A stretch of DNA of 43,372 nt, taken from the sequence record NC_073321.1. One strand, given 5' to 3'. Positions within the stretch are counted from its first letter, which is position 1, and every line of letters starts with the position of its first letter. Positions 8,067-38,938 of the stretch are shown here, piece by piece. Source of the DNA: Escherichia phage ZCEC5. Made by a program: the position numbers and the translations under genes. Under the pieces are notes generated by a model, which was given only the letters and a program-made list of their open reading frames with translations, was not told the origin of the DNA and did no database searches.

Positions 8067-8093
8067 AAGGCCCCGTTAAGGGGCCTTAGTTTT
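8067..8093. terminator. Bidirectional intrinsic terminator
   Basis: AAGGCCCC-GTTAA-GGGGCCTT flanked by A-run and T-run; sits between convergent genes. Confidence 0.6.
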
Positions 8094-8316
8094 AAACTTC
8101 CACGTCTATTACCAAATCATCTGGTACGGTTATTACTATTTTATCGTTTTCATAGAATGGGTTAAGAGGCTCATTTTCAGGCTGCAGACGTAAAGTTATC
8201 TTTTTACCGCCAAGATAATTTATGTAACGAACCCAGTACCATTGGTCAAATACTTCCACCTTATCACCTGGGCATACGTCCGAGGCCTTCTTCTGATTCA
8301 TATATCTTACTGGCAT
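8092..8316 (-). CDS. Hypothetical protein (74 aa), opposite-strand accessory gene
   Basis: Perfect RBS AGGAGG, own promoter, terminated by the bidirectional hairpin. Confidence 0.55.
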   Translation of the reverse strand: MPVRYMNQKKASDVCPGDKVEVFDQWYWVRYINYLGGKKITLRLQPENEPLNPFYENDKIVITVPDDLVIDVEV

Positions 8317-8342
8317 ACATACCTCCTGTCTAAGTTAACTGA

Positions 8343-8371
8343 ATAGTAGCCTATTATGCTGGGGTGCGCAA
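8343..8371 (-). promoter_or_regulatory. Class B promoter TTGCGC-17-TACTAT containing palindrome AATAGGCTACTATT
   Basis: Near-identical copies at 16926-16954 (-), 39509-39537 (+) and 40677-40705 (+). Confidence 0.5.
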
Positions 8372-8423
8372 ACTGTTTATTTACGTATTCCAGTTATTCC
8401 ACAGAATTGCAAATGTTGGAATA

Positions 8424-8439
8424 AACTATTCGAATAGTT
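8424..8439. promoter_or_regulatory. Perfect 16-bp palindrome AACTATTCGAATAGTT (operator-like)
   Basis: Overlaps -35 of the 8438 promoter; half-sites are the same CTATT/AATAG pentamers as the promoter palindromes, inverted. Confidence 0.45.
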
Positions 8440-8466
8440 GACTTTTCACTGAAAATGTGCTAAGCT
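8438..8466 (+). promoter_or_regulatory. Sigma70-like promoter TTGACT-17-TAAGCT with TG extension
   Basis: -35 TTGACT 8438-8443; TGc immediately upstream of -10 TAAGCT 8461-8466. Confidence 0.45.
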
Positions 8467-8472
8467 CCACCT

Positions 8473-8675
8473 GAGCTTGTGAAGTATGAACAAGCGACCG
8501 CGGCGCGGGCAGGTAACGGAGCGGGACGTAAGTCCTGAGTGTAGTTACGCTGACGCGTTCGGAAGGGCCACACTCTATTTCTTGTGTAAAAAGTAACTGG
8601 TTTACTGAGATTACGCCGTTTCTATGTTTAAATGATAAGGACTAGCGCCCCGCTTTAAGGCGGGGCTTTACTTAT
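8473..8675 (+). ncRNA. Candidate ~200-nt leader transcript / small RNA
   Basis: Noncoding GC-rich stretch between promoter 8438 and terminator 8644; contains only a weak 36-codon ORF (8486-8596). Confidence 0.25.
8644..8675 (+). terminator. Intrinsic terminator directly upstream of spanin genes
   Basis: Stem GCCCCGC / GCGGGGC (7 bp) followed by TTTACTTAT. Confidence 0.5.
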
Positions 8676-8690
8676 CGAGAAAGGAGAAAC

Positions 8691-9077
8691 ATGAATCTTA
8701 AAGAAACTGTCGTAGCAGGAGCATGTTTCGCCATCCTGGCTCACGCCCACGGCATATACCAGTATCGCAGCGGCTGGAACGAAGGCCGGGCAAATCTCGT
8801 TTCGCAGCAACAGCAGAAAGCGCAGGCTGAGTTAGCGAAGAAAACACAACGGCAGCAGCAGGACGAATCAAAGGCCGCAGCCGCTGACAACGAAGGCAAG
8901 ACGAAATCAGAGGTGATTACCCGTGAAGTCGTTAAGTACATTAAAACGCCTGGTCGCAGCGTGTGCACTTTTGACCCTGAGCGCGTGCAGCTCAAGTCCC
9001 GCGCCGTCGCCAACGCCAATTCCATCCCCGGATACGACGATGATGCAGCCGCCGTGCAAACTGGCCTCGCCAAGTAG
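8691..9077 (+). CDS. i-spanin (Rz-like)
   Basis: N-terminal TM segment then Q/A/K-rich coiled-coil region; overlapped by o-spanin ORF. Confidence 0.7.
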   Translation: MNLKETVVAGACFAILAHAHGIYQYRSGWNEGRANLVSQQQQKAQAELAKKTQRQQQDESKAAAADNEGKTKSEVITREVVKYIKTPGRSVCTFDPERVQLKSRAVANANSIPGYDDDAAAVQTGLAK

Positions 9078-9186
9078 CGATGCCGACGAGGATTTGGCTA
9101 TCGACGTTCAGAACGCCGAATGCGTACGGCAACTGAGACTGAAAGTGTTCATGTTGCAGGATTACGTGAGGAATATTCTGGAATAG
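8923..9186 (+). CDS. o-spanin (Rz1-like outer-membrane lipoprotein)
   Basis: Lipobox LLTLSAC, Pro-rich mature region; GTG start in alternate frame overlapping the i-spanin 3' end. Confidence 0.7.
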   Translation: MKSLSTLKRLVAACALLTLSACSSSPAPSPTPIPSPDTTMMQPPCKLASPSSDADEDLAIDVQNAECVRQLRLKVFMLQDYVRNILE

Positions 9187-9268
9187 TTGCCTTGCATGTT
9201 GGAATAATTTATTCTTGACATGTAAATCCGGGTGGCCCGGATTCCAACGTCCAGGGGACATACTGACT

Positions 9269-9970
9269 ATGAATCGTTTTTTACGTTATCCGTTCCAGGA
9301 AGAAGCTGGGGCAGAAGATAAAGCTAGCGGCGGTGACGCGCCGAAAATGTTCACCGCTGAAGAAGTTCAGGCGCTGATTGAGAAAGAAGTTGCCGGGCTT
9401 AAGGCTAATCAGGAAGCATTGCTGGCGGAGAAGAAAGAAGCCGCTCGTAAAGCAAAAGAAGCCGAAGAAGAACGGCAGCGCGCACACCAGGAGGCGTTAA
9501 AAGCCGCCGGTAAGATGGACGAGTTCGAAAAGACGATTCGTAGCCAGTATGACCCGGTGTTAGCTGAGAAAGATGGCCGCATCTCTAAAATGGCGGAGCG
9601 CATCCTCGGCAGCGAACGTAAAGCGGTGTTAGGCTCTTTCGCTGGTGACTTTATTACCCCGGAAGCAGTGGACATCCTCGCACCGTTCGTTAAGACTGAG
9701 TTCGAAGGTGATGATGTGGTTACTAAGTTTGTCGGCGCAGACGGTAATGTAATCACGACTGACCCGGAACAGTTCCGCAAATACCTGCGTGAACACAAAG
9801 CGTTTTCGCATTTGATTAAAGCAAATGCAGCTTCCGGCGGCGGGGCTTCCGGTAGCAAAGGCGGCGGGGCCGCACCAGCGTTTAAAGACATGAGTGAAGC
9901 AGAGCGTTTAGCCCTGTATAAATCGAACCCTGCCGAATTTGAACGGCAACTTAAAGCCCTGAGGAAATAA
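9269..9970 (+). CDS. Scaffolding protein (putative)
   Basis: Charged, A/E/K-rich coiled-coil-like protein immediately upstream of major capsid; ATG 9269 with RBS AGGGGA. Confidence 0.6.
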   Translation: MNRFLRYPFQEEAGAEDKASGGDAPKMFTAEEVQALIEKEVAGLKANQEALLAEKKEAARKAKEAEEERQRAHQEALKAAGKMDEFEKTIRSQYDPVLAEKDGRISKMAERILGSERKAVLGSFAGDFITPEAVDILAPFVKTEFEGDDVVTKFVGADGNVITTDPEQFRKYLREHKAFSHLIKANAASGGGASGSKGGGAAPAFKDMSEAERLALYKSNPAEFERQLKALRK

Positions 9971-15315: not shown

Positions 15316-15538
15316 CAATATTACTCCTGTACTCCCGTAACTTCTCCAGACTTTCAATTGCTTCTGCTAAGTCGGTTCCGGAGTCTTTGTGACCGCGCAG
15401 ACCCATACACAGCAGTTTCTTTAACGCATGCTGTAGCGCCGGGTCACGGATATCGAAGGCGCGTAGCACATCATAGACGTCTACTGTCATGGTGCTGCCG
15501 TGGGTGTTTGTCATTGTGCGGTTGTATTTTGAAGTCAT
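15308..15538 (-). CDS. Hypothetical protein (76 aa)
   Basis: ATGA-coupled to upstream metallophosphoesterase gene. Confidence 0.45.
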   Translation of the reverse strand: MTSKYNRTMTNTHGSTMTVDVYDVLRAFDIRDPALQHALKKLLCMGLRGHKDSGTDLAEAIESLEKLREYRSNIDE

Positions 15539-16665
15539 CCCAGCATCTCCGGTGAAATAGTTAAACGTGCGACCTCGCCATATTCGGCGCTATAAGTAAT
15601 CACATTTGCGCTACGGCCTGACATCCATCCGCCTCTGGATGCGTAGGCGTCTTTGGCCGCTAAGGTGCGGTGTTGCTCAACAATCATATTACGGCTTTCT
15701 ACAATCTTCTGGTGGTGCAGGTGGCCTACGTGGGCGTAGCTGTAAACACTCTCGCCGAACGCTTTGCGGAACTTAGCAATCATAACCGGTTCGATAGCAT
15801 CGAATCGTGCTTTATGCCCGTGGTGAAAGAACAATGTCGTTTTGCCGTGCTGCACCATCTTATAAACATCCGGCGATGTATCCACGGTAACTCGGCTGTC
15901 TTTTGAGTATAAAGTCGTGAACATTTCAGCCAGCCATACGGAGCCGACAGGGTCGTGATTTCCTTGCACGATAAGCAAGCGAACATTTTTGTGCTTAACG
16001 AGGGCCATATCGACAACACGGCGGACCATACGAATCATGTAGCGGACCAGTTTCTGGTAGCGGGTATCCGCATCCAACACATGGCGCGACTCCGGCGTAA
16101 CGGCATCAAGACTATCAAAGTGCGCGAAGTCCCCCAGCAGGTTAATAACTCCTGTTCCTGCATCTGGTGCTTTCTGAAACGCAGCATCGAACCACCGAGA
16201 GAACAGGTCTTCCGCAATCTTCATATCCCAGTCGTCGCCGCTCTCGTCCGCCCACGCCAGCATACCGAGATGAAAATCAGATACCGTGTAAAGATTGAGT
16301 AGCTTGTCGTCGCGTTTAGCGCGGGCGGCTTTAACAGGCGCAACGGGGGTAATCTCTGACTTCATGCCTTCAACCACGGCTTTCATCAACTCAATCTGCC
16401 GTTCGGCATCGGTGTCGGTCTTAACCCATTGCAACTTAGTGTTGCCAAACTCGTCCACCAGGGACGACGTTCCTTTAATTTTGTAGCCGTCCGGCACAAG
16501 GTGGCTAACGTCGCGCCCGTGGCCTACGCCTTTCTTAGCTAGCTTCGCTTTACGAATACGAATAACGCGGTCGGAGATGCCGTATTTACGGGCGATATCG
16601 ATAATTTTTGTTCCGGCGTTCAATTCTTCCTGTAGCTGTTCGTCGGTTATTTTCTTCTGGGCCAT
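15535..16665 (-). CDS. HTH-domain protein fused to Mre11/SbcD-like calcineurin-type metallophosphoesterase
   Basis: Motifs I-V in order: YTVSDFHLG, LLGDFAHFD, VQGNHD, FHHGH, VGHLHH; N-terminal helix-turn-helix-like region (IIDIARKYGISDRVIRIRK); RBS GAGGAAG. Confidence 0.7.
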   Translation of the reverse strand: MAQKKITDEQLQEELNAGTKIIDIARKYGISDRVIRIRKAKLAKKGVGHGRDVSHLVPDGYKIKGTSSLVDEFGNTKLQWVKTDTDAERQIELMKAVVEGMKSEITPVAPVKAARAKRDDKLLNLYTVSDFHLGMLAWADESGDDWDMKIAEDLFSRWFDAAFQKAPDAGTGVINLLGDFAHFDSLDAVTPESRHVLDADTRYQKLVRYMIRMVRRVVDMALVKHKNVRLLIVQGNHDPVGSVWLAEMFTTLYSKDSRVTVDTSPDVYKMVQHGKTTLFFHHGHKARFDAIEPVMIAKFRKAFGESVYSYAHVGHLHHQKIVESRNMIVEQHRTLAAKDAYASRGGWMSGRSANVITYSAEYGEVARLTISPEMLG

Positions 16666-28062: not shown

Positions 28063-28950
28063 TTAAGCGGCTACTTGCGGGACGATGGCATTGCCATAAC
28101 CGCGCAATCGTCCCACTCTGGCGGGTATCCCATTAGCCAGCGGGAATGTGCCGGGTTCAACTGGCCGGAATTTTCCATCCCGGCAGCCGAGCCAGTCAGC
28201 ATCTGACCAGAAGCCGTTATGCGTATTGGCTCCACGAGGTAGCATTGATTGTGAAGATTGTTCGGGTCTCTTTTTGTTTCCGCCTCGCTGTAACTTCCGT
28301 GACGCGAATTCTGAACCGTCGGTGTCCCCCATGCCGCTTTCAGCCCCTGTTCCGTTGAGTAGTCCAGTCTGTCGAATGTTCTGTCCTTCCCATCCTTGCG
28401 AATCACTGTCTCCCCGCTCCCTTTGTAATCGTTCGCTGTCGGTGTCGGCCAATTCGTGCGCACCAAAGAAGAGTCGTTCTCTTTTGTGCGGAGCGCCGAC
28501 GCTACAAGCTGGGAGTACGGCAAACCCGACGGCGTAGTCTTCTCCTTCCAGGTGAGCTTGTAAATCGCACATCCACGATTTTGCAATTGCTGGTGCAACC
28601 TGTTCCCCAAAGAGGACTGGAGGGCGGCACTCGCTGATGAGGTCGAGGAAAACTGGCGCAAGGTGTCTCGGGTCGAACTGTCCGAGTTGTTTTCCTGCCG
28701 CGCTAAACGGTTGGCAAGGCGGGCTTCCCGTCCAGAGAGGCGTATCTTCCGAAACTCCCGCAAGTCTGAGCGCGAGAGGCCAGCCGCCGATACCAGCGAA
28801 AAAATGACACTGGGTGAACCCGTCGAGGTCTTCTGGCTTAACTTCGGTAATGCTTCTTTCATCTACAACTCCAAAAGGTATGTGGCCCTGTTTTATTAAT
28901 TCACGCAGCCACGCGGCTGCGCCTTTATCCCATTCGTTGTAATAGTTCAT
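28063..28950 (-). CDS. DNA (cytosine-5)-methyltransferase, orphan
   Basis: Motif I FAGIGG, motif IV SPPCQPFS, ENV-like GEQV, HKRER, C-terminal GNAIVPQVA; no adjacent restriction enzyme. Confidence 0.8.
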   Translation of the reverse strand: MNYYNEWDKGAAAWLRELIKQGHIPFGVVDERSITEVKPEDLDGFTQCHFFAGIGGWPLALRLAGVSEDTPLWTGSPPCQPFSAAGKQLGQFDPRHLAPVFLDLISECRPPVLFGEQVAPAIAKSWMCDLQAHLEGEDYAVGFAVLPACSVGAPHKRERLFFGAHELADTDSERLQRERGDSDSQGWEGQNIRQTGLLNGTGAESGMGDTDGSEFASRKLQRGGNKKRPEQSSQSMLPRGANTHNGFWSDADWLGCRDGKFRPVEPGTFPLANGIPARVGRLRGYGNAIVPQVAA

Positions 28951-29138
28951 TTCGCCACCAGAACTAACTCTTTACGCCCGAACGCCGTAACGTTACCCGT
29001 TACATCTTCGATAACCAGTTTACCGTTCGACTCGACGAACACTGTATCAACGGCAACAGGACGACGGGTCTTAACGTTGAAAATCATATCGCCTGGTACG
29101 ATGTCACGTGCTGGTTTGCGGTCATATTCGTGTTTCAT
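28947..29138 (-). CDS. Hypothetical protein (63 aa)
   Basis: First gene downstream of class A promoter 29171-29199. Confidence 0.5.
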   Translation of the reverse strand: MKHEYDRKPARDIVPGDMIFNVKTRRPVAVDTVFVESNGKLVIEDVTGNVTAFGRKELVLVAK

Positions 29139-35945: not shown

Positions 35946-35975
35946 CTTTTCTGAAATAATTAATATGGTACTATT
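35946..35975 (+). promoter_or_regulatory. Candidate promoter/operator for the Cro-like gene
   Basis: -10 TACTAT at 35969-35974 inside imperfect palindrome AATATGGTACTATT; weak -35. Confidence 0.35.
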
Positions 35976-36005: not shown

Positions 36006-36221
36006 ATGCAACCATCTGAACTAGGCATCCGTGTAGAACAACGCCGTAAAGAACTCGGCATCTCCCAGCGCCGTCTGGCTGTCCTGACCGGAGTTTCCCA
36101 GGGCGCGATTAACCAGCTTGCGCTCGGAGTAACTCAGGACGTCCGCCCGGCGACGCTGTTTAAACTGGCGGAAGTGCTTGAAGTAGACGCCAAGTGGCTG
36201 GCGTTAGGTGAAGGGGCTTAA
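36006..36221 (+). CDS. HTH XRE-family (Cro/C1-type) transcriptional regulator
   Basis: 71 aa; LGISQRRLAVLTGVSQGAINQL helix-turn-helix; strong RBS AAGGAG. Confidence 0.75.
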   Translation: MQPSELGIRVEQRRKELGISQRRLAVLTGVSQGAINQLALGVTQDVRPATLFKLAEVLEVDAKWLALGEGA

Positions 36222-38537: not shown

Positions 38538-38771
38538 TTATTCCAGGTCTTCTAAAGTAGCGGTCATTCCGCGAACTTCAGCAACAGCACTATATTTCCC
38601 GCCAACATTTTTCACGACACCAGATTTAACCAGCACTTTCAACGACCCTTCAATAATGGCTGAACTATAGTACTTAAAATAACTACGGCGCAAGTCGATA
38701 ACGCTGCACGACCCTTTTTTACGTGTTAACGAAACTACCGCCGTAAATACGCGTGACTGGAACTCGGTCAT
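38538..38771 (-). CDS. Hypothetical protein (77 aa) with C-terminal TLEDLE tail
   Basis: ATGA-coupled; C-terminus resembles those of the primase and DUF2800 proteins. Confidence 0.45.
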   Translation of the reverse strand: MTEFQSRVFTAVVSLTRKKGSCSVIDLRRSYFKYYSSAIIEGSLKVLVKSGVVKNVGGKYSAVAEVRGMTATLEDLE

Positions 38772-38938
38772 TTAACGTTCTCCTTAATCCACGCTTCCAC
38801 TTTCTCCGGGTCAAACGTACCAGGCTGCCGGCGGCCCATAATGCGGATACAACAATCTGGGAACTTCCCGCTCTTTAACCAGTTATTCAGTGTGCGACGA
38901 GTAACCCCGATACGCTCGGCTACCTCATTCTGCGTCAT
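38768..38938 (-). CDS. Small HTH DNA-binding protein (AlpA/excisionase-like)
   Basis: MTQNEVAERIGVTRRTLNNWLKSGKFP; ATG 38938 with RBS AAGGAG (ORF-track frame 38768..39016). Confidence 0.5.
   Translation of the reverse strand: MTQNEVAERIGVTRRTLNNWLKSGKFPDCCIRIMGRRQPGTFDPEKVEAWIKENVK

Follow-up and report, generated by a model that had tools for sequence, protein, structure and literature searches.

A perfect 16-bp palindrome at the leader promoter of a Kagunavirus-type siphophage looks, on comparison of related genomes, like the junction of two separately conserved GAATA boxes in opposite orientation, and not like a stand-alone operator. Together the abutting boxes may form a protein-binding element at about -41.5, through which a conserved factor other than the regulator of the phage's 14-bp operators would control the leader/late promoter positively; this reading is quite possible but is advanced tentatively. 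The window, that is, the whole stretch of 43,372 nucleotides that was analyzed, is a complete or nearly complete genome of the Guernseyvirinae. By megablast, many Escherichia phages of Kagunavirus match it at ∼90% identity, and its gene order agrees with that of annotated relatives. The palindrome lies upstream of the spanin gene, which is followed by the scaffold gene and then by the major capsid and tail genes. The features discussed are listed in Table 1.

Table 1. Features of the leader and scaffold promoters, the 14-bp operators, and the candidate regulators (window coordinates unless stated otherwise)
Feature	Position	Strand	Elements and remarks
Divergent promoter of the 74-aa accessory gene (8092-8316)	8342..8371	-	-35 TTGCGC (8371-8366), -10 TACTAT (8348-8343), 14-bp operator 8342-8355
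Gap holding the palindrome	374 bp		Between the leftward 74-aa accessory gene (8092-8316) and the rightward i-spanin gene (8691-9077)
Two TATTCC boxes	8386..8400	.	8386-8391 and 8395-8400; upstream edge of the conserved promoter module
GAATA-AAC-TATTC dyad	8419..8431	.	Right half supplies the core of the left palindrome arm
Perfect 16-bp palindrome	8424..8439	.	Halves AACTATTC and GAATAGTT; center 8431.5, about -41.5 from the inferred start at 8473
GAATAG box abutting the -35	8432..8437	+	-41 to -36; supplies the core of the right palindrome arm; register as GGAATAG-TTGCCT at 9180-9192
AATAG-TTGA-CTTTT	8433..8446	.	One-mismatch copy of the 14-bp operator, normal orientation, over the -35
Leader promoter	8438..8466	+	-35 TTGACT (8438-8443), 17-bp spacer, TG (8458-8459), -10 TAAGCT (8461-8466)
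Structured leader RNA, ∼200 nt	8473..8675	+	Intrinsic terminator (stem 8647-8666) just before the spanin gene (8691-9077)
Scaffold promoter	9170..9243	+	GGAATATTC (9170-9178), GGAATAG (9180-9186), -35 TTGCCT (9187-9192), GAATA-ATT-TATTC (9202-9214), -10 TATTCT (9210-9215), hairpin 9225-9243
376-aa protein	15535-16665	-	N-terminal helix-turn-helix-like segment (weak match) and metallophosphatase domain
71-aa protein	36006-36221	+	Lone gene; closest solved relatives 434 Cro and 434 repressor (PDB sequence search)
Second small helix-turn-helix protein, excisionase type	38768-38938		86%–89% identical in all Kagunavirus and Jerseyvirus genomes examined
AATAG-N4-CTATT, exact copies	8342, 16925, 29176, 33088, 35918, 39525, 40693		Always over a sigma-70-type promoter core
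TATTA-N6-TAATA copies, Cornellvirus	7554, 14749, 37322 of VSiA

The sequence AACTATTCGAATAGTT is indeed perfectly symmetric, as an earlier sequence-only reading of the window had claimed, and no other perfect palindrome of at least 14 bp is present in the window. It spans -49 to -34 relative to the inferred start, and the overlap with the leader -35 described in that reading amounts to 2 bp. Its further observation that the pentamers are those of the promoter palindromes, placed in inverted order and 2 bp apart, was likewise correct (CTATT-CG-AATAG versus AATAG-N4-CTATT). The bare symmetry is not significant, since 51% of first-order Markov simulations of the window (205 of 400) produced a palindrome of at least 16 bp; the weight of the feature comes from its position and conservation, not from symmetry alone. 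Perfect palindromes of at least 12 bp are under-represented in the window (5 observed and 11.8 expected from first-order Markov simulations), a scarcity consistent with restriction-site avoidance.

The exact palindrome was found in 37 IMG/VR contigs, in 33 of them at the leader promoter and in the other four in unrelated contexts. The possibility that it is an operator used widely across phage groups was rejected, as these 33 matches represent one and the same promoter. Metagenome contigs anchored on a flanking box carried it in 17 of 19 cases, and it was exact in 35 of 42 distinct 95-nt haplotypes. Among the 42 haplotypes, the palindrome showed 0.50 deviations per column, compared with 0.73 for the TATTCC boxes and 0.80 for 8409-8423, whereas the variable stretches at 8401-8408 and 8450-8457 showed 6.6 and 5.0. 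The palindrome columns are thus conserved to the same degree as the flanking boxes and the -35, and ∼10-fold more than the two variable stretches beside the conserved block; given this low deviation relative to the variable flanks, the palindrome lies inside a 41-bp block (8409-8449) under purifying selection. There is no sign of selection for symmetry itself, because the symmetry is broken in each of the seven variant haplotypes and restored in none. Pattern scans of viral contigs and metagenomes anchored on the flanking boxes revealed no symmetry-preserving double changes. The outer AAC and GTT prolong the symmetry past both boxes, an agreement with a chance of ∼1 in 64, and the symmetry of all 16 bp would be largely a by-product of the two boxes meeting.

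The leader promoter is of the sigma-70 type (TTGACT-N17-TGcTAAGCT), with the TG providing an extended -10. Its -35 matches the consensus at five of six positions and its -10 at only three, which explains why a simple promoter scan missed it. Both hexamers and the TG are conserved, and the GenBank entry for phage fBC-Eco01 lists a predicted host promoter at the homologous site. From the position of the -10, transcription is predicted to start near 8473. The GAATA-N3-TATTC dyad occurs exactly twice per genome, at 8419 and 9202 in the window, and likewise twice in each of 10 complete genomes, thus in 11 altogether. In Cornellvirus, the copy that is not at the scaffold promoter lies in the Rz1 start region, away from the leader promoter. 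The TATTCC boxes are kept in both forms of the region, termed here the Kaguna-type and Jersey-type alleles. Clusters of five GAATA/TATTC words in 60 bp are present at 8386-8436 and at 9171-9214, and none of 300 shuffles reached five.

The second of these clusters coincides with a promoter (GGAATAG-TTGCCT-N17-TATTCT, 9180-9215) located between the o-spanin and scaffold genes. From GGAATAG to the end of the -10, Kagunavirus, Jerseyvirus, and Cornellvirus do not differ except in a short variable segment of the spacer; the sequence that follows is variable and contains a hairpin (9225-9243) with compensatory changes. GAATAG-TTGAC at 8432 and GGAATAG-TTGCC at 9180 are in the same register, with ATGTTGGAATAA common to both. 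The hexamers TTGCCT and TATTCT are weak, matching the consensus at 8 of 12 positions, though they stand ahead of the scaffold and capsid genes, which suggests that the scaffold promoter needs activation. At both promoters, the predicted transcript begins 2–3 nt ahead of a conserved hairpin with compensatory changes, which lends support to the inferred start sites. A GAATAG touching the -35, a GAATA-N3-TATTC dyad, and a predicted start at a conserved hairpin are all found at 8419-8495 and at 9180-9243. We propose to define these two sites as a family, the GAATA-box promoter module of Guernseyvirinae, which is a suggestion made here rather than an established class. Dhillonvirus HK578 has a plain sigma-70 promoter at the position of the scaffold promoter, with a hairpin of this kind.

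A covariance model built from Kaguna-type leader RNAs recovers the Jersey-type leaders. In the leader alignment, which was fitted to the model and so favors structure, 95.6% of cells are paired compared with 81.2% in shuffles, and none of 500 shuffles reached the observed value. Fourteen of 33 base pairs have changed on both sides, as against 0–2 in slid controls. Searches of Rfam with the whole window at gathering thresholds, and with 8400-9300 at E values up to 10, returned nothing relevant. The Cornellvirus leader is longer and has a similar GNRA-capped hairpin. Possible roles of the leader RNA are those of a small RNA or of an element that acts in cis on read-through.

Accessory genes that differ between phages occupy the slot upstream of the leader promoter (8092-8385): the window has the 74-aa protein here, and other phages have a methyltransferase, a RusA-like resolvase, an amidase, or no gene. 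Where the slot is occupied (the window and Bas74), it has its own promoter bearing the 14-bp operator. Phages that lack an upstream accessory gene have a terminator directly before the TATTCC boxes, which form the constant start of the conserved promoter module whatever the slot contains.

Jerseyvirus genomes retain the TATTCC boxes, the GAATA-N3-TATTC dyad, the promoter, the leader, and the terminator. In the Jersey-type allele, the half-sites of the dyad are kept around a CTT spacer instead of AAC, and the position of the palindrome reads CTTTATTCAAAAAGT[A/T], in which three of eight pairs are symmetric; the GAATAG box is missing, and an A-tract (CAAAAAG) is found there instead. Scans of viral contigs and metagenomes anchored on the flanks revealed no intermediate alleles, just the Kaguna type, the Jersey type, and single-base variants. 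The Salmonella phages FSL SP-101, SETP13, and SE479, classed as Jerseyvirus, have the Kaguna-type allele together with the neighboring decoration-protein gene, indicating that the allele moves as a recombination block; this gene is 89%–98% identical in carriers but 61%–66% in non-carriers. When the 72 open reading frames of the window were tested for association in five genomes with the Kaguna-type allele (four with the exact palindrome, and S100 with a central G-to-T variant) and five without, the physically adjacent decoration-protein gene alone tracked the allele, and no unlinked phage protein did so across these 10 complete genomes. The Cro-like 71-aa protein of the Salmonella phages is ∼48% identical to that of the window in carriers and non-carriers alike. 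Phages Jersey, SS3e, PVP-SE2, and Shelanagig do not contain the palindrome and have three to five exact 14-bp operators.

The operator AATAG-N4-CTATT is present in seven exact copies in the window, where 0.04 are expected. It fills the spacer of three leftward promoters (TTGACA-N17-TATAGT) and overlaps the -10 of the four others (TTGCRC-N17-TACTAT), with invariant half-sites and variable spacers. The palindrome departs from this pattern in the reversed order of its half-sites and in a spacer of 2 bp rather than 4; it occurs once per genome and is missing from relatives that keep the operator. It overlaps the -35 by 2 bp, and the seven operators cover the spacer or the -10. Near the palindrome, only the overlapping 8433-8446 fits the operator, with one mismatch. 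At 600-632, a strong promoter (TTGACT-N17-TATATT) follows a terminator and has its -35 within another one-mismatch operator, ACTAG-TTGA-CTATT (600-613); phage Jersey has AATAG-TTGA-CTAGT at the equivalent site, where the opposite arm carries the mismatch. AATAG-N4-CTATT is entirely missing from Cornellvirus VSiA, and TATTA-N6-TAATA occupies the equivalent promoter positions, which suggests that the specificity of the regulator has changed. At the scaffold promoter of VSiA, GGAATAG-TTGCCT is retained (GGAATAG-TTGCCT...GGAATAATTTATTC). As VSiA has altered the operator half-site and retained GGAATAG, the GAATA boxes did not co-evolve with the operator, and this independence argues for a different reader of the boxes.

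The 434 operator is a 14-bp site with a variable center, and the 14-bp operators of the window are probably read by the 434-Cro-like 71-aa protein, whose own promoter has a one-mismatch copy at 35962. In searches with the small proteins (Pfam, PHROGs, NCBIfam, PDB), two were clearly of the helix-turn-helix type, and the 376-aa protein gave a weak match at its N terminus. The excisionase-type protein was undetectable in Cornellvirus. A published Kagunavirus time course has a helix-turn-helix gene among four early genes (PMC12645636). The 376-aa protein is 81%–95% identical in most of the Kagunavirus, Jerseyvirus, and Cornellvirus genomes compared and 55% in FSL SP-101. In VSiA it adjoins the leader promoter and is annotated as a "transcriptional regulator"; a solved relative was not detected by sequence. 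The N-terminal helix-turn-helix of 15535-16665 and the products of 38768-38938 and 36006-36221 are putative activators, as candidates only. Cornellvirus lacks a 63-aa protein (28947-29138, minus strand) that shows 95%–100% identity in every Kagunavirus and Jerseyvirus genome compared, a distribution shared with the AATAG-N4-CTATT operator and the 38768-38938 protein.

A role in protein binding at the DNA level is the most reasonable reading of the palindrome. It would be one piece of an upstream region that controls a conserved sigma-70-type promoter, and this promoter is predicted to make a structured, terminated RNA and, upon read-through, to express the spanin and the head and tail genes. 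The TATTC half of the dyad would meet the GAATAG that touches the -35, and the palindrome would result. A protein that recognizes GAATA boxes, distinct from the regulator of the 14-bp operators and most likely phage-encoded and conserved across the subfamily, may bind here, centered at about -41.5, and act on RNA polymerase from this position, most likely positively, as class II activators do. With its good -35 (5/6) and extended -10, the leader promoter may, however, do without an activator, and the Jersey-type allele works without the GAATAG box. The spacing of the boxes also differs between the leader and scaffold promoters (N0 versus N2, and N3 versus overlapping), which argues against a single rigid dimer.

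The sequence-only reading had left a choice between a second binding mode of the operator regulator and a site for a different factor. The latter is favored and the former is the weaker option, given the geometry of the operators, the single copy that is lost in the Jersey type, arms that are each explained separately, and the half-site change in Cornellvirus VSiA. By analogy with 434, a symmetric Cro-like dimer should be unable to read half-sites that point apart at N2, and binding of the same regulator to 8433-8446 in the normal orientation is possible, judging from the one-mismatch site over the -35. A wider version of the favored reading, in which the GAATA boxes at the leader and scaffold promoters would constitute a late module of Guernseyvirinae read by a conserved candidate phage protein such as that of 15535-16665, with the leader RNA controlling read-through into the head and tail genes and the palindrome as the proximal site in the Kagunavirus-type allele, is more doubtful.

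Such normal-orientation binding is the core of one alternative, which we consider unlikely: the regulator of the 14-bp operators would occupy AATAG-TTGA-CTTTT and repress the leader promoter at high occupancy, with the left arm of the palindrome incidental. The site is one mismatch away from a motif present seven times, a similar copy covers the -35 at 600-613 with the Jersey mismatch in the opposite arm, the solved relatives of the 71-aa protein bind 14-bp operators, and the promoter of this protein itself contains a one-mismatch copy. But ∼1.2 such matches are expected by chance in the window, TTGACT by itself supplies the CT of the second half-site, three further mismatches are present in the Jersey-type allele, and the conservation of 8424-8431 is left unexplained. 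Repression of a head-gene promoter by a regulator that shuts off other promoters would also be awkward. Improbable to a similar degree is that no dedicated factor is involved and that the block acts as an AT-rich stretch resembling an UP element or through DNA shape, its symmetry a coincidence carried along by recombination. Half of random sequences of like composition hold a 16-bp palindrome, no variant haplotype restores the symmetry, the allele is inherited as a block with the decoration-protein gene, and the place of the GAATAG box is taken in the Jersey type by CAAAAAG, which we take to resemble a proximal UP subsite. However, two findings point to sequence-specific recognition: the scaffold promoter has the exact GAATAG box in an identical register, and GAATA-N3-TATTC, present twice per genome, is kept across genera around variable spacers.

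It is distinctly unlikely that the 16 bp form a self-contained operator read by one dimer, be it the same regulator in a second mode, an allele-specific factor, or a host regulator. Perfect symmetry over 8 + 8 bp that reaches past the boxes through AAC/GTT, a center at -41.5, and high conservation would all suit such a site, whereas its single copy per genome with the four remaining viral-contig matches in unrelated contexts, the loss of symmetry in the Jersey type, the lack of a phage protein that tracks the allele, and the tolerance of a central G-to-T change in the S100 lineage speak against it. Comparison by eye with the sites of the host regulators CRP, FNR, ArgR, Fis, IHF, TrpR, RcsAB, CpxR, and DnaA gave no convincing match. 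The order of promoter, ∼200-nt terminated leader, and lysis and head genes, with an intrinsic terminator between the leader promoter and the late genes, recalls lambda pR'-tR', and an excisionase-type helix-turn-helix protein is encoded at 38768-38938; the palindrome might accordingly be seen as the loading site of a Q- or AlpA-type antiterminator for read-through of the leader terminator (8647-8666) into the late genes. This is very improbable. AlpA has its binding element in the interval from the -35 to the -10, near the RNA exit channel of the paused polymerase (PMC9371919), and the palindrome, unlike that element, lies upstream at -49 to -34, so a loading site was rejected on position. In addition, no Q- or AlpA-family match was detected among the small proteins scanned, and the structural conservation of the leader RNA suggests RNA-based control instead.

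Isolation of Kagunaviruses and Jerseyviruses for use in phage therapy and food biocontrol is widespread, and their gene regulation is almost unstudied; the literature found comprises a single, coarse time course by RNA-seq (PMC12645636) and a single prediction of a promoter motif (PMC9825357). If the GAATA boxes control both promoters that feed the head and tail genes, they would offer a direct handle on the late switch in phages that rely on the host RNA polymerase. The boxes also define short sites that are testable by footprinting and reporters.

The motif predicted in fBC-Eco01 (tgAATAGTa-ccTATTat-T) was described as a "phage promoter" and attributed to a phage RNA polymerase (PMC9825357). 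It is the same seven-copy motif as AATAG-N4-CTATT in the window, where, in contrast to that attribution, it sits inside sigma-70-type promoters; a phage RNA polymerase was not seen in the annotations of related phages. That paper makes no mention of the 16-bp palindrome, the GAATA boxes, or the scaffold promoter.

At the Cro and CI operators of 434, lambda, and P22, small helix-turn-helix dimers bind short inverted repeats located at promoters of the phage. Similarly, the window has 14-bp operators with conserved outer bases and a variable center and encodes the 434-Cro-like protein of 71 aa. The palindrome differs from such operators in the opposite order of its half-sites, its spacing, its single copy, and its location mostly upstream of the core promoter. 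A regulator can repress when bound over the core promoter and activate from -42. The palindrome would resemble class II sites (lambda CI at OR2 for PRM, or CRP and FNR at -41.5), with a dyad at about -41.5 from the inferred start that abuts or overlaps the -35. Class II promoters have a weak, activator-dependent -35, whereas that of the leader promoter is already good (TTGACT, 5/6, with an extended -10), the activators are candidates only, and the symmetry is dispensable in the Jersey type. A few late promoters of phages Mu (Mor, C) and P2 (Ogr) have phage-specific boxes in common, which lie upstream of the -35 or overlap it, and the sharing of boxes near the -35 by a small set of promoters is similar here. 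The box sequence and spacing in the window are unrelated to those dyads, and no homologue of Mor/C or Ogr was detected among the proteins scanned. Taken alone, the palindrome is an ordinary kind of feature, and it is a modest piece of a late-promoter control region that had not been described.
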